Shown in pieces: positions 34,393 to 62,034 of a stretch of DNA of 64,000 nucleotides. Every line of letters starts with the position of its first letter. Position 1 is the first letter of the stretch. Where the stretch lies: positions 682,001 through 746,000 of the forward strand of contig CP120462.1 in the NCBI GenBank assembly GCA_034226945.1, written 5' to 3'. The translations under genes were made by a program, and so were the position numbers. Source of the DNA: Picochlorum sp. SENEW3. Taxonomy: Eukaryota. Under the pieces are notes generated by a model. The model was given only the letters and a program-made list of their open reading frames with translations. It was not told the DNA's origin and did not search any database.

Positions 34393-34771
34393 AATAGATG
34401 GGCGGTGCCTCGAGAGAGTATCGAAAAGGTATCCAAAAGGAATCTAAACATCGAATCTGAAATATAGTTTTGGCGCGTCCGCATCTTCCATGATAGAGAT
34501 GCTATAGAGAACGGTAGATGCCTCCTGTTGGAGTGATTGGTTAATGTAATACATTGTAAGGTTTGCTTTCGCTATTCCTGTGCCTGACCGTACTACCAGA
34601 GGTCGAGTATCGCACTTTGTGCACCGATTTCCGATCTGTGCGAATTGCGAGGGACGATAACGTGTGTTGGGATACGGTATAGGATTTTTGGAAGGGGTCA
34701 TTGGCGTGAGGAGCAAGGACGGAGTCGTTGCATCTGTCGGTGGGCAGAAAGCGTCATAATACCGACACGCC

Positions 34772-37700
34772 ATGGACGACGACGGTCTCGGGATGCGTGG
34801 TCGTGGGATGGATTATTTCGATACAGGTGGATTTATATCTAATTCAGAGATGTGTGAGCAGTCTCGTGCTACGTATTGGCATCGCGTTGACGATCCCGAT
34901 TCGTACAACTTTTGTCCTGTCGAGGAAGGGAGCACAGATGCCTTTCTGTTTGCATCCATGGCAATCATTATTGCTAGTTTGCTCCATTTTAGTCGAATGT
35001 CTGCAGTGCTTGTTCTTTTCATGGGCTCTGTTATAGAAGTTTTTGTGTACAAGTATAATTTAGGAAGGATTGGGAACGCATTTACGGTGTGGTTGGGTGT
35101 GTCTCCTCCAGAGATTCTTCTCTATGGGTTCCTGCCTCCTCTCTTGCTTGATGCGGCCATGGGTTTGGATTGGTTTGTATTTACAAAGGTCGCCAGACAT
35201 GCTATTGTCTATGCGTTCCTTGTAGTAGTTTCAACGGCTGGTATTATGACACCGTTTATGCTTCATGTGTTGAATCTAGGGAGTTGGGGCTGGACCTGGC
35301 CATGGGCAGCCCTCTTCATTTCCACTGTTGCCTCGACTGATGCTCTGGCTGTTTCTGCTATTATTAAAGGTGCTTGTGGTCCAGAGGACTTGACTGTGTT
35401 GATGGAAGGAGAGTCTTTGCTGAATGATGCCACATCCTTGGTTCTCTTCTCTGTTCTCTTCTCATTGTGCAAATCAAATCAGATTGTTGACCTTTCCAGT
35501 GTGCTGCCCAAAATGGCGATCGAGTTTTCGTGGTTGGCTATAGGAGGCTGCTTTGTTGGATTGTTTTTTGGATGGTTGACCCTCAAAGTCTTGAGGCTGA
35601 TGCGGACAACAGGAGCAAGCAGGCCAAGAGAGTTGGGACTCGTGCAAGGAATGGCCTTGCTGACGTTTTATGTTGGGTCATCGCCGTTGGGGGTCTCCGG
35701 AGTCATTGCTGTTGTGGTTTTTGGTCTCTATGGTGCAGCGACATCCAAGTTTGAGCTTGCAAATACCGATGCGGCAGCACAGCTTGATGGAGTACAGAGC
35801 ACGCTTGGGTCTGTATTGAATGGCATTGTGTTCTTTTTGGGTGGTGCTTCTGCCACGAATTTCCTAATTCGCGCAGCTCCCCTGCTGCAAAACGAGGTGT
35901 TGTGGACATTCATTTGTATCCCCATCATTTATGTCATGGTGTTCATTGTGAGAGGTGCATCCATCTCAGTGTTCAACTATCTCTTTGGATTGACAGGACA
36001 AGGGTCGCTTGCATGGAGGTCAATCCCATTTATTACGCTTGGAGGTCTTAGAGGTGCTTTGTCTCTCATCATGGCGATGCAAATCGCTTCGGAGGCCTAT
36101 GGAAAGGACGTGGATCCTACAACTGGGAAAATCATTGCGCAGATTGTGACATGGGCATCTTCTTTTGTGCTTTTAACACTGCTGGTGAATGCACCTTCCT
36201 TGCCATGGCTTTTGAAAACATTTGGACTTTTAGAACAGTCAGAAGCGAAAAAAAAAGTGGTTAATCGAGTGACAAAAGCACTGGAACAGAAGACGAGGCA
36301 GATTATTCAAGACCTCAAGGCTGATGAGGATGAAATGTTTCGGGGTGTCGACTGGATGGCTGTCCAGGACTTTTCTCAAGGTAATATTAAGCCATCCTTG
36401 TCTAGAAAGAAGCGCGGATTTTGGAGTAAAGTAGTATCTTCAGTTGGGAAATTCTCATTCAGAGAGAGGGTGTCAGAAAGAGGGACCACAACACCAGTGG
36501 CTGCAGATATTGAGGAGCCCCTGCTTCAGGAAGATCGCTCTCTTTATGATCTCCAGATGGACGAGAATTTCAAGCAGGTTGATAATGCAGCTGAAAAGGC
36601 GAATAAAGAAACTCCGTTTATGTACAAGAATGTAGAAGGTATCGATCCAATGGCTGGCATGTCCAAAGTATCGTCCTCATCACAATTAGCAGATTCAAAT
36701 GCATCCTTGGGATGGTCTTCTCCTCCTGCAGAAGCAATGCGACCGAGTGAGAGTGAGCTCCATACCTGGTGGGGCACTGCTGAGGAGGGGGTTGGAGCTG
36801 GGCAAACCTCAAGGGAGCAAATTGTTAGTGCATCCCCAGATGCGTTGCTAGAAGCGCGAACAAGGTTGATTTGGGGCATCAAGCGTTACATCTTCTCAAA
36901 AAGACAGGAGGGATTATTGTCTCCAAACGGATCCAAGACATTGGCGTATGCCTGTGATGCAGCCATTGAAAAAGCAGAAACTCCCCTGGTATGTTGATGT
37001 GTTCACTGCATTCATTGTACATGTCCATCTCTCAACCTACTATACGTTGTATGCAGGATATTTGGTCTTCAGTGAACAAAGAATTGGTCGAGAGAATTGA
37101 ATTACAGGCCGCGGCTTGGGTGTTCCATTCGGCCCGCATGCTAGTCTACTCATCCCCAGGGTTTGCACAGCCTGTCTTGAGTCCACTCATCAAGTTTGCC
37201 ACATCATGGCTCGGTGTATACCTCGGGAAAGCCATGCTTAAATCCTGTGAAGTAGCCATTGCATATTACATGGCATTGTGCTTTTCCAAACAATCTCAAT
37301 GGCTACAGACTGCCCATAAAGACTCTCTACTACACTTGGAACTCATTCTCGAACGAGACAGAGTCTATCAATTCATCATTGACAGGGAGATTGAAGCACC
37401 GGCTCATTTCGAAGCCATGCAAACATATCGAGCTGAAATGGCCGTAATATTGAGACAAATGCAGTACATTGATTTAATATTCAACGCCGGAGTCATCAAT
37501 GAGGTGGAGCGGGAGAGACTCATCTCCCCAATAGTCCAACGGAAGCAGGTCCTGGAGGTCACAGGCCCATCAGGCAATAAATGGCAGAGTTCCGGAAATG
37601 TACTCCTCTCATTACCAATATATAGAGATTTGGATGACGACTCGAAGGAAATAATCCTCCAGTATGGCGCTATGAAAGAATTCGGAGGGGGTGAAATCAT

Positions 37701-38628: not shown

Positions 38629-38737
38629 TCATTTCATTGGAGACTTTTTATCCGCACATTTTCCTTCACCTTTCTCTGATGTTTATACACCTATTAATAA
38701 TTTGAAATAAATAAGACAGTGCCGTTTCAATCGTAAG

Positions 38738-39769
38738 ATGCTGCGTCGGTGGTATTCTTCCAAGACGACAACGGCACTGGAAAAGGCAGTCTCCGCCATT
38801 GTAGCCTCATCTCAGAGTAATTCTATCCAGACCCTTTTCAAAACGAATGATTACATTGTAATTGACGATTTTTTTGACAGAGATGATGCTATAGAGCTGC
38901 AGAGAGACATTATTGATACAATCCCTGACATGTCTTTGAATCAAACGTTTGTGTACAGCAAAGCCTCACCTCGACCACGGATGTTTCCAAAAGAACATAT
39001 TTTAGAGTATGATTATAAAGGCAGAACGATCGAGACGAAAAAGAACCCAACCGTCTTGGATTCGTTGGTGGAAGACTCGTCTCTTGTGACCATGTTCAAC
39101 ATACTGTGCCCACAGCTCTTTGGCGGGCCCAACCTTCTTGTCGGCCATGACTTGAAAATACAGTACAATAGAGGGCATGGAGGATGCTTTCCTATCCACT
39201 TTGACTCGGATCCATCGGTTGATTCACGCGTGGTGACATGCATTCTGTACCTCTCATTGCCAGAGAGGACACAGGAGCATGGTGGGCAGCTGGTCTTCTA
39301 CCCCCACACAGTGACCGGGGAGGACAGGTCCCCGATAGTGATAGAGCCCACGTTCAACCGATTGGTAGTCTTTGGATCGCAGACGATGGCCCATCGAGTA
39401 TTGCCCAATTTTGCTGATCGGTATTGTTGTACCTTTTGGCTTCAGACACAGAGACCTGTGCAGCCCATGAGACAGGATGGGAAGGACGATGCTAAAGCAT
39501 TGATGAAGAGATTCATGGAGTCAGATGATCCATCAGAACGGATGAGAGTCTATGAGCGACTGTGTTGTATACCAGAGATTCGGCGGCATATGATCAAGTA
39601 TCTATGGAGGGATGCCTGGAAGGCATCTCTTGAAGAATCACATGCTCCTTCACCATTGCGAGATGAGTTGATTGCATCCTTTGAGACTGAGATGGCAACG
39701 GTATCTCGAATATTATCTCCCATACTAGATAGCGTTGCTCGGTATGGGGATATCCAATCCATTGGATGA
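38738..39769 (+). CDS. 2-oxoglutarate/Fe(II) dioxygenase (prolyl-hydroxylase-like)
   Basis: HFD (HxD), RVVTCILYL, HGGQL, IEPTFNRLVVF, HRVLP and RYCCTFW. Confidence 0.88.
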   Translation: MLRRWYSSKTTTALEKAVSAIVASSQSNSIQTLFKTNDYIVIDDFFDRDDAIELQRDIIDTIPDMSLNQTFVYSKASPRPRMFPKEHILEYDYKGRTIETKKNPTVLDSLVEDSSLVTMFNILCPQLFGGPNLLVGHDLKIQYNRGHGGCFPIHFDSDPSVDSRVVTCILYLSLPERTQEHGGQLVFYPHTVTGEDRSPIVIEPTFNRLVVFGSQTMAHRVLPNFADRYCCTFWLQTQRPVQPMRQDGKDDAKALMKRFMESDDPSERMRVYERLCCIPEIRRHMIKYLWRDAWKASLEESHAPSPLRDELIASFETEMATVSRILSPILDSVARYGDIQSIG

Positions 39770-52634: not shown

Positions 52635-53050
52635 CCGAATTGAATTTTGTCACTACTATTATTTTCTTCTTTGATAATTATTTAGTATGCGCCGCAGAGG
52701 CCGAGGGTTTGCCAAATGATTGATGTCGTTGGCATCAATCAGGTAACAACAACCAATCATGAAATTCATGATTCATGATTGCTGATCAGCTGGCCAGATC
52801 CATGCATGGATCTTGGGTGGTTGAGCCAGCCTGGCTCTGGTAGATTTCTGAAGCAGTGGTTGATGGCTTATTCCCATGAAGACGTGAGATTCATAATCTT
52901 TCTCTGCGTGTATAATTTTTACATCGCTGTATAGTATAATAAGGTGGTCACGAATAAAACTATAGGAAACGAACTGTACTCTCTGGAACAATCGGCAACA
53001 TTTTATTAAGTTTGAGTGCTAGCATGCTGGTAAAAAAGATTTTCGATAGA

Positions 53051-54496
53051 TTAGCATTGGACGTTTGCTGGCCAATCACAGGTTGATATGGCTTCGTTCC
53101 ATAACAGGCTGCTTGGGCAGTTGAAGTACCATGATCCAGTGGCTTCACATCTGTAATAGTTGGAGCATCCAGTGGCCTTGTCGGCGTAGAATCCATATGG
53201 TTTACCACTGGCCTTGATGTTTTGGCAGAAGCTTTCTGCATCTGTAACTGGGGATGGCTGTGGCGATGGTGATGGGGTTGGCTTTGGAGATGGGGTTGGC
53301 TTTGGAGATGGGGTTGGCTTTGGAGATGGGGATGGCTTTGGAGATGGGGATGGCTTTGGAGATGGGGATGGCACTGGTTCTGGAGATGGCACTGGCTCTG
53401 GAGATGGCACTGGCTCTGGAGATGGCACTGGCTCTGGAGATGGCACTGGCTCTGGCGATGGCACTGGCTCTGGAGATGGCTTTGGAGATGGAGATGGCAC
53501 TGGTTCTGGAGATGGCACTGGCTCTGGTGATGGCACTGGCTCTGGTGATGGCTCTGGCTCTGGTGATGGCTCTGGCTCTGGTTGTGGAGAAGATCCTTCT
53601 CTTGGCAAAATTGTAATATCAGCGCAGTTCCAAAATTCCTGCAAGACATAATAACAGTAGGTAAAAAAATGGCATCATCATACTCATCATCGCCACACAA
53701 GAAATAATGCAGAAATAAAAAACATACCTCTGGATATGGACTTGTTGGACCGCACTCTGCGAGGCCACTTGAACCATACTGAGATGGGGTATTTGGAGGA
53801 TTGCACGAGTTTCCAGTAAGATAATGCCATTGCATCACGCATCTGGAGGTCTTACCATCACAGGTCAGTCCCTCTGGAAGTTGATACTGCATCCTGTACT
53901 CCCAATCTTTGCTTGATGGACCAATAAAGTACCTTGAAGATCCTGGGCTCTGTACACCCGGGACATCAGCTTGTTTCAGAACGTTCAAGTTCAGGCAGCC
54001 TTCTGTGAGCTGGGCAGCCTCATCTTGGGCAGAGGTGCCGTCAATCTTGCAAATTCTAAAGTCAAAGTCACCCTTATGGTAGGCAGTGAGGACAACGTCG
54101 AGTTCAATTATTTGCCCTTCTGTATATGTGGCCTGCGACACCCCTGTCCAGTATTTGCCATTTGCCTCATGGTTGCGGGGTGTTGGTGCAGTGTATGGGT
54201 CACCGCAAATTCCATTCTTACCGGTTGGGAAGGACGCCCCAGACCCGACTACTCCAGGACCTCCAGCTGAAAGACATTGTGGGCAGTAATCTGAATTGGC
54301 AACCACATTCCTCGCTGCAAGACAAACGGATGAAAATGAGTGAGTGTATTCATATACACATCTTTGTAGCTCCTACCACGACATGGGACGCCGGCGTACC
54401 TTTTGGAGTTCTGAGATATCCATGGCCATGGACTCCAGATGAAAGCATGTAAAAGCACAATGCTGTCAGAAAAGTACGCACGTAGTAGACATACAT
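53051..54496 (-). CDS. Secreted AA15-type lytic polysaccharide monooxygenase with Pro-rich linker and C-terminal CBM14 (peritrophin-A) chitin-binding domain
   Basis: Exons 54496-54400, 54314-53728 and 53638-53051. Signal peptide ...SSGVHG/ gives a mature N-terminal His ([11 protein letters not shown]). Motifs [37 protein letters not shown] and EEFWNCADI, then a 6-Cys CBM14 (CSNYYRC...[10 protein letters not shown]....CDWPANVQC). Confidence 0.9.
53262..53582 (-). repeat. Tandem 18-bp coding repeat encoding (SPEPVP)n/(SPKPxP)n linker
   Basis: About 17 degenerate copies of TCTGGAGATGGCACTGGC / TTTGGAGATGGGGTTGGC on the + strand, inside the LPMO last exon. Confidence 0.95.
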
Positions 54497-54527
54497 TGTT
54501 GAAGACAAGTGGTACTTTCGGCTGCTG

Positions 54528-54537
54528 CTGACGTCAG
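54528..54537. promoter_or_regulatory. CTGACGTCAG palindrome (bZIP C-box/CRE-like) in the LPMO / CBM-protein divergent promoter
   Basis: Perfect palindrome about 31 nt upstream of the LPMO ATG. TGACGTCA also occurs at 16643-16650 and 40324-40331. Confidence 0.35.
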
Positions 54538-54872
54538 ACGCGTGAAATCAATAGGTTGTGTTCGTGTTGATTGATTATCAACAAGAAAGGTATTGAATGA
54601 ATTTATATTATCAATATATAATATAAAGATTATTTCTTTAAAATAATTGTGGCATTTGCAGCTCGTGAGTGAGCATTTATGCCAAAGAGATGACGAGGAC
54701 GCTGGCCGGCGTCCTCATCGCCTCATGAATGGGGCCACACGCGGGCGAGCGTGATATATGATGCAAACCTCTACTACTTGAGAATGCATAATAAATTACT
54801 GCTATAAATTCATTGTCATCATTTCTTGTACAGCTAGTACATACGAATAACGAAAGTGTGGTTCTTGGAACA

Positions 54873-55460
54873 ATGATGAAGAAGGTGTTGCTTTTGGTCG
54901 GTGCCACCGCGGCCGTGTCTGCCCAAGGGGTGACCGCGGGAGATATTTACTCTCCTGGTTCTGCATCTCTTGCCGAGGGATGGATGACAAAGGGCGTAGA
55001 TTATGAAGTAGACTTTGAATCCAATTCCCAGGGATCCTTCATGTGGATGGATGTGTATGATGATGGAGAGGTTCGCTTTGTGACCACCAAGGGCCCAGGC
55101 AAGCATGGCAGCAGTCTCGAAATCACATCTCAGGACTGTGGTTTTGATGGAGCATCCTTCTCTCTTGTGGATTCAAGTACCAAGATAGCAAGTCCAGAGA
55201 TTCGCATGTCCAGCGTAAAGGAGGAGGCCTCCTATTTTGGATCCACCACATACTCAAATGGTGCCTGTCAGATATCAATTGACCTCCAAAAGCTGGTTGA
55301 GCACGGATCAAATATGGATTGGGATACACTTGTATTCAGGGATCTCTCTGGAGATGGATTTACTACGGATGTCGAGTCCATGTATGTTTCATCCGCCACT
55401 GCCGATGAATCGACGGTGTCCAAGGATCTTCGACAATCAAACAGGAAACTCAAGCTCTGA
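54873..55460 (+). CDS. Secreted protein with a putative carbohydrate-binding (beta-sandwich) domain
   Basis: Signal peptide MMKKVLLLVGATAAVSAQ. IY......LAEGW at the start and WDTLVFRDLSGDGF near the end resemble galactose-binding-like CBM patterns (recognised from memory). Confidence 0.65.
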   Translation: MMKKVLLLVGATAAVSAQGVTAGDIYSPGSASLAEGWMTKGVDYEVDFESNSQGSFMWMDVYDDGEVRFVTTKGPGKHGSSLEITSQDCGFDGASFSLVDSSTKIASPEIRMSSVKEEASYFGSTTYSNGACQISIDLQKLVEHGSNMDWDTLVFRDLSGDGFTTDVESMYVSSATADESTVSKDLRQSNRKLKL

Positions 55461-56769: not shown

Positions 56770-59700
56770 TCATACAGGAGGATTAGGATAGACAACCATC
56801 AAGGCTGTCTTTGACATCACTTTCCAAGTGATGGGGGATTGTTTGGAAACACGTGTTGCTTTGCCAAAGAGAGCCTGCTCGTCGACTTCTGTCATCCAAG
56901 GGATTGCGGCTGGAGCTCGCATGACATTGTCCTTCGAAATAATCTGTTCATCATCTTGTACATTTTGATCTGTTTTGAGGTGGCCTACCATCAGAATCAT
57001 AGTACAATCCTGTTGTATTGATTCCCCGTGATCAAAGTACAGCACGTGGGCCATGTTGAGACTTTTCTTCAGTCGTTGAGCCATCTTCTGCACACAATTT
57101 GTGGCTTTTTTGAATCTGATAGATTCTTGATGATGTTCATATGGTCCAGGAAGCACGCCATCTACGCCGATAAAGTCTTGAGAAAATATCTGATGCAAAC
57201 CTATGCTCTTGTTCCTCCCATCTTGTTGCCACTCTGGTGCATTTGCATGTATAGACCTCTCAGCAAATGGAGATTTGAAACGATCGACATTGGTTTCTCT
57301 CTCTCTTTCCATCTCTCTCTTTTTAATGTGCTTCAGTATCTCTAGAGTGATTGGAGCCTCGAGGTCATAAAAAACATGCAGGGAGGCAGCTTTGATCCAA
57401 CCTTGCACTACATGAAGGAACGCTCTTGAGCCTTTCTCTGCTCTCAGCATAATTTCGTCAACTTTATCCTGAGGAATGTGAAAAATAGCAGGTCCTCTGC
57501 CTAACGCGTTGCCAGATGCTACCAGGCTCTCTGTCCCCCTTAATGATGTAAGATGAAGTGCTTGCAGCACACCAATGCATGATTCAGGACCGCAAAACTT
57601 CTCTCTCTCTACAGAATTCAATCTCCTGTGCTGCTTGGCCACACCGTGCATAATATAAATGATACCAGGTCCCTGGCTTGCCGACATGTCATCTGTATGA
57701 AAGATGATTTCCCCTGGTTTGCACTCTTTGATGGTTCCCGTCTCCCACAGTTCGTTGAATATGTCCTTCTCCAGTGTGGCAAATGGCTTTAGCGCCCGTA
57801 TGCCGTCCTTATATCGCGGGGGTCTCCATATAGGGCCGACCACTTCCAGTCGTTGTAGCTTTCTACCCACCTTTTCACACACAAATTCGCATTCACCATG
57901 GTTGATAATGCCTTGAGCATGGATCTCATGGAGGAAGTCTAGCATCTTTTTCATCACAACGATGCCTGCACGATAGGATTGAATTGCCCTAAATGTATCT
58001 GGAGCTTCTATTTCTCTCTCAATAATAAAGTTATATGATCGCTGCGATTCAAGTTCTACTTCCTCCAAGAGAGGCAAGGTATAGTCACCATGCAACCTCA
58101 GCCACTGCACATGTGAACTTGAATTCAATGCCAGATTATATTCTATGGCAACCTCACATCCCAAAAGCACTCTTCTGCCAAGATATCTACGGCACAAAAT
58201 ACCAGCGAGTGCATAAGGATAATGCAAGACCTTTTTCACAATTGGATTTGCAGATTTGAATTTTATCGAGCCATGAAGAGCCAGGGAGGCAATCACTTGT
58301 GTTATCAAAGATCTGCTGATCTTTTTTACCAATATATCCCATACCCCAATCTTGCTATAACTCGTTATCTCCATTTTCTCATCGCAAGCGCCTACTAAGA
58401 TTCGGAAGGCTTCATCAGAAATCTTGCCAAGGTGTCGACTTTCATGAAACCTTGTCTTGAGGCCTTCAGTGATTCTGGACCTGATCTCTTGCAATGTATT
58501 TAATCGCAGACTGTATGTAAGTATGTACAAGAATTAGAAAATATACTAAAGTTTGTTTGTCTCGAGTGAACATGACTAACCACAGCAAATACCTAAAACA
58601 GAAAACGCACCCATGTACAATTCCATCTTGCCTCATGCCTGTTGCAGCATCAGGCGCTCTACTAGATTCTTTGCCATTTACAGTTCCGCTCTCCTCATCC
58701 GAATCATCCGAGTCTGTTATTTCGCTCATGTCTGAAATTGTCCTCAACCTATTGGAGACATCGTCTGGACCCTTGAGAGTGGAAAAGTCCCTGGGAGTAC
58801 CATTTCTGCCATGTGCATGGCCTCTCAAACTGTGAGACATCACGGTGGGTCTTTCAGCGCTATCTTCTTGTGCTCTGAAATATATCGATTGAGATGAATA
58901 ATACCTACCGTGTGAAACAATTCAAGTGCATATCACGTACCTCCCAGTGGTGGTGGAATTTGAATCCTTTGCTGTGTCAGTCATTGCTCTGCCGAAAAGA
59001 TCAACCTTTCTCGAATAAGATGTCATACGTTCCGTTGGATCATTTGGAGATCTTTCCCTATACTTCTCACCCGTTATAGAATTTAGGGTACGCTGCTCCA
59101 TGGAACCATGGCTACTGTCACCTCTTAATTCTGCCGACCTACTGTCCTGAGAAGAGTTGTTGACGTCTGCTAGGTACTGTACCAGCTCATTATATTCTGG
59201 ATGATTATCTCGTCGAAAATCATCAGCCCTTTCATCAATTTGACCCTGAATCAAGCGAGATGAGAGAGTCCTTGCTTGTTGTATTTGACTTCCTTGAAAG
59301 TTTCCTGAAGAGGGTAGCGTAGGGTCCAAAAAGTCCTTACCCTGGGCATCTGCTTCCGATCCGGGGTGTTCCTTCTTCCTGGCCTGCTTCAAGTTTTTGA
59401 ATAAATTATCCCTTCTCGAGCCTGCTAAGCATACTTGATCAAAATCGCTCTCTTTGACATCTATACCTCCACCATCAGTATATTGAATACTTGACATGGT
59501 TGTCTGCTCCAGACCATATTTCGCCGACCCAGTCTCAAGATCACTGCATCCTTGTGTGATAATAAAACTTGAATTCTTTTCATCAATGATTTGCTCGCTT
59601 TGGAACGGGCATTCGGTGAGCAAGGTTTCGAATGCAGGCGTTGACTCATCTGATGATCCCCATTGCTGGGATGAAGAATCCTGAGAGCCTTGGGACTCGC

Positions 59701-61666
59701 AGCCTTTTGATCTGGGAGAACAAAGAAGCATTCTGAAAACATCTATAAGGAATCTTTTCAAAGAATTCCATAGTGCTTTGCCAAGGACAAGCACCACAGA
59801 CCACAGGGAGTTCTGGTCCAGTTCAACTGTTTCCGAGGTCCCCTTTCCTAGCGAGTCATCATCGACCTCGGAGATATCCTCCACATTCCCAAAATCACGC
59901 AAATCCTTCGATAAATCAACATACTTGGCGATGACATCCCAGTCAGCCCCGGAAAGAAGCTCATCATCATCATCCCCATCTCGAAGTTTTTGAATAATCT
60001 CCGTTGTATTGTCCAATATTATTGTTTTCGCCGTCGCTTGAATGTGTCGAGATGCTTCCGGTATTGTATTTAGCTTCAAAATTGAAAGCAATGGAGCGAT
60101 GCATGGCCCATTCACAACCAATGTCAGCACAACAAACCAGGCAGTCCAAAGAGACATGTCTGCTTTTATAGTCCTCATCTCAGTCGCATAGGATTCTGAT
60201 ATCGTCAATTCACTATCCACCAAGTTAATATAATTCCTTCCACCTGACAGAGACGACACGAGAATCAAGGAGACAGCCCCCCTCAGTCCTGACCATCCAG
60301 TAAACATAATTTCTGCAACCGACAGAGACTTGCCAACCAAATGAAAAATTGGATTGAAAATTGCAATGCAGAATGTTCTGATGACCAACATGAAAATGTA
60401 GATCAAAGGAATAGATACAAATGTCATTGCGTCCGTGGGCGTCTGAGATATTGTCCGGATGACATATGTTAAAGATGCAACTCCAGCCCAGAAAAAAACC
60501 AAGCCATTGGCTGCAAATGAAATCGCCTCCCATATTGCTTTGAACTCCCCAGTCTTGACAGCAGATCCTGTCATACCCCACATAGACATCCAATTACCGA
60601 ACAAACCAAATGTAACAACTGCAATCACTCCAGAACCACCTGCAGGAGCGTTTGTGACATAATAGGTCAAGTATGCCATGGCCAAAACATACACAGCTTC
60701 AATATGAAGCCCCGCTCCTCTCCATCTCAACCAACGAAGGATGTAAAGTGATATGATAGAGAATCCGAGCCCAATGCCTACCCCAATTGCTGACAGCTTG
60801 ATGATATCCACAATAATGGTAGGAATCACACTCCAAACTGTAGGAATTGCATTGCTATACTGGTCCCTGTTTGTGTCAAGAATGCCCTCAAACACCTGAA
60901 AAAGCGTGATTCCAGTTGCATCATTCAGCAGTGACTCCCCTTCCAGAATGGTGGTCAAGATTGCAGGACCATGTGCTTTTTTCAAAATAGAGGAGACTGC
61001 CAACGCATCAGTCGGTGCTATTATCGCTGCAAACAACGCCCCATGTACCCATGTCCAGCCATTATATTGAAATCCAAGAACAAACAGGATCAGCGGCGTC
61101 AGAATAATTGCCGTCAGAATAACCATGACAACAGCAAGCATGATGGAATGCATGAACATCTTCCGAAACATGTAAAATTCTATATGAATCGCTTGCTCCA
61201 CTATCAATGGCGGCAGAAAAGCGTATAGAAATAAATCACTGGGAGCAACTGACAGCCATTGTGTGATACTGTTGCCCAATTGCAGCATATCTACATAGTA
61301 ATGAAGAATACCCAAGAGGGCACCAACCACCAGGACATACACTGTCGACAGCTTTCCGAACAAAAGACATGCTGCTATCAGAGCGATACCAACGAATAAG
61401 AATGCATCGTATCCTCGCGATGGAACAATACAGTAGTTCATCGCCCCTGGTATATGCACCCTGTTAGCCAGGGTAACGTTGAGCAAGTAGCACAGCGTGG
61501 GAGACCACAACTGTGGATGATCAACGAAGCCATATATACTAGGAGGATTCGTAACATTTAAATTTTGAGCTTCACATACAGTCTGCTCAAAGGCGTCAAC
61601 GTATTCGAAACAGGTACCGTTGTTTCCCAACGTACTCAGTTCGTCTGCTGCTCCGAGGCCACTCAT
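56770..61666 (-). CDS. SOS1: SOS1/NhaP-like Na+/H+ antiporter (paralogue 2)
   Basis: FLPPLI, APTDALAV, LEGESLLNDA, SGVIAVV, WSGLRGAVSL, LTLVVNG and GADW. Introns 58875-58940 and 58511-58610 join three ORFs in frame. The C-terminus is cNMP-binding-like. Confidence 0.9.
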
Positions 61667-62034
61667 GATCAAGATACGAGTTCACGCATCATGAGAATCG
61701 CATAACAATAGATAAAGAATAAGAATTGTACTTTTTTGAATTTTCGCGGACCCAGTCGTACTACCATTCTCCAGAATGGAATGGGCCGGATCTAAAGTTC
61801 TGATTACGGCATGCCTTTCACATCGACGCAGCAGGCATGCATGCCGCATATGCGGAGCAACTGATGGTGGATACCCATCATGCTGGGCACATTGGGAACA
61901 ATAATGGGTATATGTATGTACACTCTACATCTGTGACTTTTATTTACAATACCGAAAAGAGATGACAAGTCATACCAGGGAAAAAAGCCCTTGTGAAAAG
62001 TGCTACAACAAACAATGAGGAAACAAGACAGCAT

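Follow-up and report, generated by a model that had tools for sequence, protein, structure and literature searches.

A three-exon Picochlorum gene predicted to encode a secreted AA15-type lytic polysaccharide monooxygenase with a CBM14 module

The question raised by this locus is whether a green microalga carries a secreted copper enzyme for oxidative chitin cleavage in a gene that a list of open reading frames (ORFs) breaks into pieces. The locus covers positions 53051 to 54496, minus strand, of a 64,000-nucleotide stretch of DNA (contig CP120462.1), which is referred to as the window throughout. A preliminary description, made from the letters alone, had proposed a hidden gene for a lytic polysaccharide monooxygenase (LPMO) of family AA15 with an extensin-like stalk and a chitin-binding CBM14 module. 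The underlying observation is confirmed, and all described elements are present at their positions. In our view, the locus is probably a three-exon nuclear Picochlorum gene for a secreted modular enzyme of 423 aa, which combines an AA15 LPMO with a Pro/Ser-rich linker and a CBM14. It is nothing unusual within its family, whose occurrence in green algae has been reported before.

The window is gene-dense, with about 45% GC and plant-type genes, and the GC content of the LPMO gene matches that of its neighbours. Since the EPSP synthase ORF of the window is identical to that of Picochlorum sp. BPE23 at 503 of 508 positions, the host was assigned to the trebouxiophyte genus Picochlorum, and the green microalga named at the outset was thereby placed more precisely.

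Gene structure and splicing

In the stop-to-stop ORF listing, the gene is indeed split into three minus-strand pieces. The first (54350..54547, 65 aa) contains MYVYY...HGYLRTPK, the second (52960..54372, 470 aa) covers the LPMO core and then reads across intron 2 into a wrong-frame, QSQSHH-type version of the repeat, and the third (53051..53674, 207 aa) comprises EFWNCADI, the repeat and, at its end, the Cys-rich CBM14. Joining the exons 54496-54400, 54314-53728 and 53638-53051 resulted in a coding sequence of 1272 nt, which translates into 423 aa with a terminal stop only. The two GT-AG introns were thus placed as previously suggested. Intron 1 (54315..54399) measures 85 nt (GTACGC...TTGCAG) and intron 2 (53639..53727) 89 nt (GTATGT...TTGCAG, 33% GC); neither length is divisible by 3. 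Exon 1 (54400..54496) carries the start codon, the signal peptide (54425-54496), the His1 codon (54422-54424) and HGYLRTPK. The LPMO catalytic core is located on exon 2 (53728..54314), including the codon of the second brace His (54076-54078) in LTAYHKG, while exon 3 (53051..53638) completes the LPMO domain with the axial Phe codon (53633-53635, in EEFWNCADI) and continues with the linker, the CBM14 and the stop codon (53051-53053). A tblastn search with the spliced product matched only the gene itself inside the window, and no paralogue was found there.

The use of the two junctions was followed in sequencing runs, of which X3 and X4 are marine metatranscriptomes of one study (X4 being an oligo-dT library) and X15 and X1 are DNA-type runs. 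In one RNA contig each of X3 and X4, position 54314 is joined directly to 54400 and the 85 nt in between are skipped; the skipped segment reads CT..AC on the plus strand, equivalent to GT..AG on the gene strand. In X15 and X1, intron 1 is present without interruption. The transcription and removal of intron 1 by splicing are therewith confirmed, and the EukProt model P0121 of Picochlorum renovo shares this junction.

For junction 2, the support is of a different kind and comes from homology together with an insertion in the intron of a relative. The full-length relatives that were read show no break at either junction, and neither do those rows of alignment A1 that cover them; across junction 2, the protein is uninterrupted in every such relative and in all spanning rows. 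In X1, intron 2 of a related strain differs by 6 substitutions and an insertion of 2 nt (within 53647-53709), compared with 5 substitutions in the approximately 540 nt of exon 2 covered by its contig. Moreover, the ORF call P0026 (95% identical) runs into a stop eight codons past PYPE when it is read into intron 2. Because of the homologue continuity, the 2-nt insertion and this stop, junction 2 is regarded as supported. Of the two junctions proposed, the first was consequently corroborated by RNA contigs and the second by homology.

With regards to the transcript ends, an RNA contig of X3 extends to 54628, which gives the 5' leader a minimum extent of 54497..54628. No ATG is present between 54628 and the start codon, and the nearest upstream ATGs are located at 54655 and 54676. 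At the other end, the transcript contigs of both X3 and X4 stop at 52907, so that the 3' untranslated region spans at least 52907..53050. It includes TGTAA at 52919-52923, a weak hint only, as we presume UGUAA to be the chlorophyte poly(A) signal. The final ten bases of both introns are identical, TGTCTTGCAG (54315-54324 and 53639-53648, minus strand), which may reflect a 3' splice-site preference of this genome.

Domain architecture and family assignment

The product starts with a presequence of 24 aa, comprising Arg7 and a hydrophobic core (mean Kyte-Doolittle hydropathy 1.86), and His25 follows directly, preceded by V-H-G with Val at position -3 and Gly at position -1. Among 76 homologues with an M...|HG start, position -1 is G/A/S/C in 73 and position -3 is without exception A/V/T/S/C, the median presequence being 23 aa; in the homologues, the mature protein begins at the equivalent His. 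These features support the proposed signal peptide, the predicted cleavage of which after Gly24 would expose His25 as His1.

As far as Pfam is concerned, the anticipated profile matches were obtained above the cut-offs for both domains, with exon 2 matching LPMO_10 (PF03067; E 7.7e-10, 40.2 bits, cut-off 23) and exon 3 matching CBM_14 (PF01607; E 8.2e-13, 48.7 bits, cut-off 22.1, profile positions 3-53 of 53). The family is large, as indicated by 1713 homologous representatives in the protein library at E<=0.001, 41 of them at E<=1e-30. Sequence searches of 177,635 distinct PDB sequences returned one LPMO only, the AA15 enzyme TdAA15A of Thermobia domestica (5MSZ). It was matched at E 1.3e-17 with exon 2, at 1.2e-22 with the full-length relative P0004 and at 1.2e-26 with the 16-row profile A1, and it is the sole solved structure that matches exon 2 at E below 0.1.

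The two catalytic motifs were recovered where they had been predicted. LTAYHKG starts at residue 108 of the spliced product, with His112 as the second His and Ala110 two residues ahead of it, and EEFWNCADI starts at residue 228, which places Phe230 at the axial position. For the residue alignment and the structure model, P0004 was used as a proxy, a full-length relative with 69% identity in the core. Its residues H26/A112/H114/F231 align with His1/Ala89/His91/Tyr184 of TdAA15A, A112-Y-H114 lying over A89-P-H91 and EEF231 over EEY184, and the catalytic motifs of the window protein are identical to those of P0004. In a 45-sequence alignment, H26, H114 and F231 (P0004 numbering) fall into columns conserved at 90% or above. 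When 168 homologues were scanned, 78 had a recognisable axial motif, with Phe in 77 and Tyr in 1. Copper binding by His25 and His112 is predicted from these correspondences.

The roles of the equivalent residues in TdAA15A (the His1 and His91 brace, the AA10-like Ala89 and the axial Tyr184) are described in Sabbadin et al. 2018 (PMC5823890). There, AA15 members with an axial Tyr, such as TdAA15A with Tyr184, are distinguished from those with an axial Phe. TdAA15B belongs to the latter, is specific for chitin and releases C1 aldonic acid products, and an axial Phe is typical of chitin-specific AA15s and of most chitin-active AA10s. Therefore, the earlier statement that an axial Phe matches AA15 holds for the chitin-specific members, whereas the founder TdAA15A does not share this residue.

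With P0004 as the proxy, structure prediction also led to AA15. The model (mean pLDDT 87.2, with a low-confidence linker and an N-terminal helix at residues 2-18) superimposes on 5MSZ with a Z of 23.2 and an rmsd of 2.3 Å over 183/195 residues at 36% identity (VIA-align), residues 26..242 covering chain residues 1..195. The next-best fold matches were AA13 with a Z of 15.2 and AA10 with 14.1 or less, and Foldseek likewise ranked 5MSZ first (E 5.3e-14). Both the sequence searches and the modelled fold support the catalytic domain as an AA15-type LPMO, as originally proposed, with 5MSZ as its only structural relative by sequence and, in the fold comparison, well ahead of every other match. The two Thermobia enzymes share with the algal protein the fold and the equivalents of His1, His91 and Ala89, and TdAA15B also the axial Phe. 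However, TdAA15A has the axial Tyr and, according to PMC5823890, no CBM, and the algal protein exceeds both by extra loops (mature domain of approximately 212 aa versus 195 to 201), the linker and the CBM14. The chitin-active AA10 enzyme CBP21 (2BEM) has the histidine brace, the Ala before the second His, the axial Phe and the chitin targeting in common with it (fold Z 13.7), but this family is bacterial, carries other CBM families and gave no detectable sequence match.

The CBM14 (peritrophin-A) module at 53054..53206 (minus strand) holds the six Cys that had been described for the C-terminal end, namely residues 366, 386, 392, 402, 415 and 423, with 19, 5, 9, 12 and 7 residues between them. 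We take this spacing to fit the peritrophin-A consensus. In PDB sequence searches, the module also matched the CBM14 of solved chitinases, and PF01607 is present in 15 of the 22 'longer' close-relative matches. It is hence predicted to bind chitin.

Between the two domains lies a Pro/Ser-rich linker of 126 aa (residues 237-362; 53237..53614, minus strand), which contains 58 Pro and 25 Ser and is built from 9 SPEPVP, 6 SPKP[ST]P and 1 SPEPEP. At the DNA level, TRF reported an 18-nt unit in 16.5 copies with 88% matches (53279-53581), in good agreement with the approximately 17 repeats counted before. In all four runs compared, including the two RNA runs, the contigs break inside this array and therefore offer no independent check of the copy number; the value of 16.5 may be an assembly estimate of an array that is length-polymorphic between strains. 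In the DNA run X15, the word depth over 53266-53630 was raised two- to three-fold, from 59 up to a maximum of 182. The length and sequence of the linker vary among homologues, that of the window being the longest in A1, and in the P0004 model its pLDDT is under 60.

The designation of the stalk as extensin-like did not withstand closer inspection. Chlorophyte hydroxyproline-rich wall glycoproteins and plant extensins resemble it as secreted proteins with repetitive stretches rich in Ser-Pro. However, the stretch found here lies between domains and is variable among homologues, and its 24 Ser-Pro are accompanied by no Ser-Pro(3-5) motif, Ser-Pro-Pro-Pro included, and by no Pro-Pro dipeptide at all. 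Judged by composition, the stalk is a flexible Pro/Ser-rich X-Pro interdomain linker and not an extensin in the strict sense; it is probably O-glycosylated. Elsewhere in the window, at 38711-39769 (plus strand), an ORF matches the 2OG-Fe(II) oxygenases (PF13640, E 5.7e-16), a superfamily that includes prolyl 4-hydroxylases. This oxygenase could be relevant to the hydroxylation of Pro-rich secreted proteins.

Proposed mechanism, substrate and role

On the basis of these features, the following mode of action is proposed. After cleavage behind Gly24, His25 would become residue 1 and its amino group and imidazole would, together with His112, hold one copper ion in a histidine brace, with Phe230 below the axial position. 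The CBM14 on its flexible linker would dock the enzyme onto a chitin-type polymer of GlcNAc or GlcN, where the reduced copper centre could cleave beta-1,4 bonds oxidatively with O2 or H2O2, most likely at C1. Chitin is favoured as the substrate because a CBM14 is present, the axial residue is Phe in nearly all homologues with the motif, and the Phe-type TdAA15B is chitin-specific; the substrate, the C1 regiochemistry and the physiological role are all predictions from sequence. The likeliest target would be the chitin-like wall of the alga itself, for instance in loosening the mother wall at autospore release. Division-1 chitin synthase genes have been reported for Chlorella and Picochlorum (PMC5122149, citing Foflonker 2015), and this makes an endogenous substrate plausible.

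Two alternatives concern the identity of the enzyme. An AA10 LPMO of the bacterial or viral type, for example one acquired from a virus, could be suspected from the name LPMO_10 of the matching Pfam model and from the axial Phe, which chitin-active AA10s also have (PMC5823890). However, no AA10 chain was found at E ceilings of 10, 1 and 10 (phmmer with exon 2 and with P0004, and profile A1), where AA15 reached 1e-17 to 1e-26, and the P0004 model scored 23.2 for AA15 versus 14.1 or less. The gene furthermore has two spliceosomal introns and a neighbour-like GC content, and viral contigs yielded no close relative: a single-protein scan, sensitive to close relatives only, returned 9 pattern matches, none of which was confirmed by tblastn. 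As sequence searches and structural superposition both favour AA15, AA10 membership was rejected as highly improbable. Hardly more credible is a non-catalytic, LPMO-like protein that binds copper or chitin for structural or metal-handling purposes. Some histidine-brace proteins are generally known not to be polysaccharide oxidases, but here both brace His, the Ala before the second His and the axial aromatic residue are retained and conserved in the family, and the closest relatives that have been characterised show enzymatic activity (PMC5823890).

For an active AA15, the substrate and the direction of attack have to be considered. An action on a non-chitin beta-glycan such as cellulose, mannan or another wall polymer, with the CBM14 as a mere anchor, would be in line with the relative P0017, which has PF00553 in place of the CBM14 of the others; we take PF00553 to be the cellulose-binding CBM_2. 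Nevertheless, the axial Phe is the chitin-type state and the CBM14 is kept in most close relatives (15/22), which makes this explanation unlikely. A more serious competitor, albeit a tentative one, is an outward-aimed enzyme that attacks the chitin of chytrids, aphelids, other fungi or zooplankton surfaces, or scavenges marine particulate chitin for nitrogen and carbon. The CBM14 and the axial Phe indicate chitin of whatever origin, PMC8393829 describes the AA15s of oomycetes as virulence factors with specificity for chitin, the transcript turned up in metatranscriptomes from the sea, an environment rich in chitin, and no wall-synthesis genes adjoin the gene among the 37 long window ORFs (E<=1e-5). 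Against this, the reported chitin synthases make an endogenous substrate likely, and a CBM tether on a long, wall-protein-like linker suits retention in the own wall. We would thus rank own-wall remodelling above the outward role, and both far above a non-chitin substrate or a non-catalytic protein.

Several points weigh against a spliced AA15 gene with a function in the own wall. With 95-99% identity to the window, the RNA contigs represent a close relative, not surely the same strain, and all of them stem from a single study. No RNA contig of X3 or X4 covers 53632-53753, which leaves junction 2 without RNA support. The fold comparison refers to the model of the 69%-identical P0004 and not to the protein of the window. 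Within the 37 long ORFs, no chitin-metabolism or wall family was found at E<=1e-5, and the own-wall role is one of several that are equally compatible with the sequence.

As a tentative idea, own-wall remodelling can be extended to Picochlorum and the trebouxiophytes in general, in which a small paralogous set of AA15-CBM14 proteins might oxidatively cut the chitin-like wall at division to let the autospores hatch. If true, this would give the green (plant) lineage its first LPMO with an endogenous, developmental function, in parallel to the part that AA15 plays in insect moulting. Picochlorum grows fast and serves as a production alga, and an oxidative wall enzyme bears on its wall biology, on harvesting and lysis, and on the resistance to chitinous parasites.

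Relatives, public annotation and genomic neighbourhood

The novelty attributed to the gene in the preliminary description was too high. AA15 in Chlorophyta, fusions with CBM14 and, also in Chlorophyta, fusions with GH18 were already in print in 2018 (PMC5823890), and CBM14 on AA15s is also recorded in a 2023 review. In the literature searched, no functional work on a green-algal LPMO was found, and Chlorophyta AA15s came up solely as a phylogenetic mention from 2018; PMC8657485 mentions AA15 for an aphelid parasite and not for the alga. A characterised green-algal LPMO thus seems to be missing, and the modest interest of the locus derives from this and from a gap in the Picochlorum annotation.

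The closest relatives of the LPMO are contigs at 69% identity, followed by the BPE23 paralogues P0006 and P0300 (M9434_004654/M9435_002740) at 62%. Further relatives are a Chlorella sorokiniana model at 55% and fragments from Helicosporidium. The trebouxiophyte AA15-CBM14 proteins, comprising the BPE23 pair, P0004 and P0005, share the order of signal, LPMO, P/S/T-rich linker and CBM14 and are 62-69% identical to the window protein in the catalytic core. In contrast to the latter, the BPE23 proteins each have two CBM14 modules; they are paralogues with 62% identity.

To call the gene hidden is fair with respect to public annotation. No named protein of 107 to 2000 aa with at least 90% identity to the LPMO core was found, and no orthologue was detected among the proteins of the 99%-related strain BPE23. 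The Picochlorum renovo model P0121 (139 aa) is 91% identical, but its match is limited to residues 1-47 of the 195-residue core. By eye, its first 75 residues differ from the window product at one position, while beyond approximately 75 aa it leaves the LPMO frame, and its tail corresponds to the out-of-frame ORF 53991..54107 of the window. P0121 is, as judged from this comparison, a truncated and frame-shifted model of the Picochlorum renovo orthologue. Given this truncation and the lack of a BPE23 orthologue, CAZyme counts for Picochlorum probably miss the gene.

Other gene models of relatives are distorted as well. Prokaryote-style ORF calls on contigs of relatives (P0026 and 8 cluster members) present intron 1 and exon 2 as one protein of 205-274 aa. 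The Chlorella sorokiniana protein P0016 (1569 aa), named 'DNA damage checkpoint isoform A' and matching PF04005/PF01612/PF00570, contains an LPMO core that is 55% identical over 91% of the query, and it is probably a merged model of neighbouring genes.

On the plus strand, a divergent neighbour (54873-55460, 195 aa) with the signal-like N-terminus MMKKVLLLVGATAAVSAQG... starts approximately 245 bp from the observed 5' end of the LPMO transcript. Its ORF (54873-55457) gave no Pfam match at E<=1e-5, and its best Atlas score of 0.82 is below the useful range. The two genes may share a bidirectional promoter. Finally, two long Na+/H+ exchanger ORFs (PF00999) are located less than 25 kb apart, at 34760-36997 (plus strand) and 58922-61681 (minus strand), a pair that is in keeping with a halotolerant alga.

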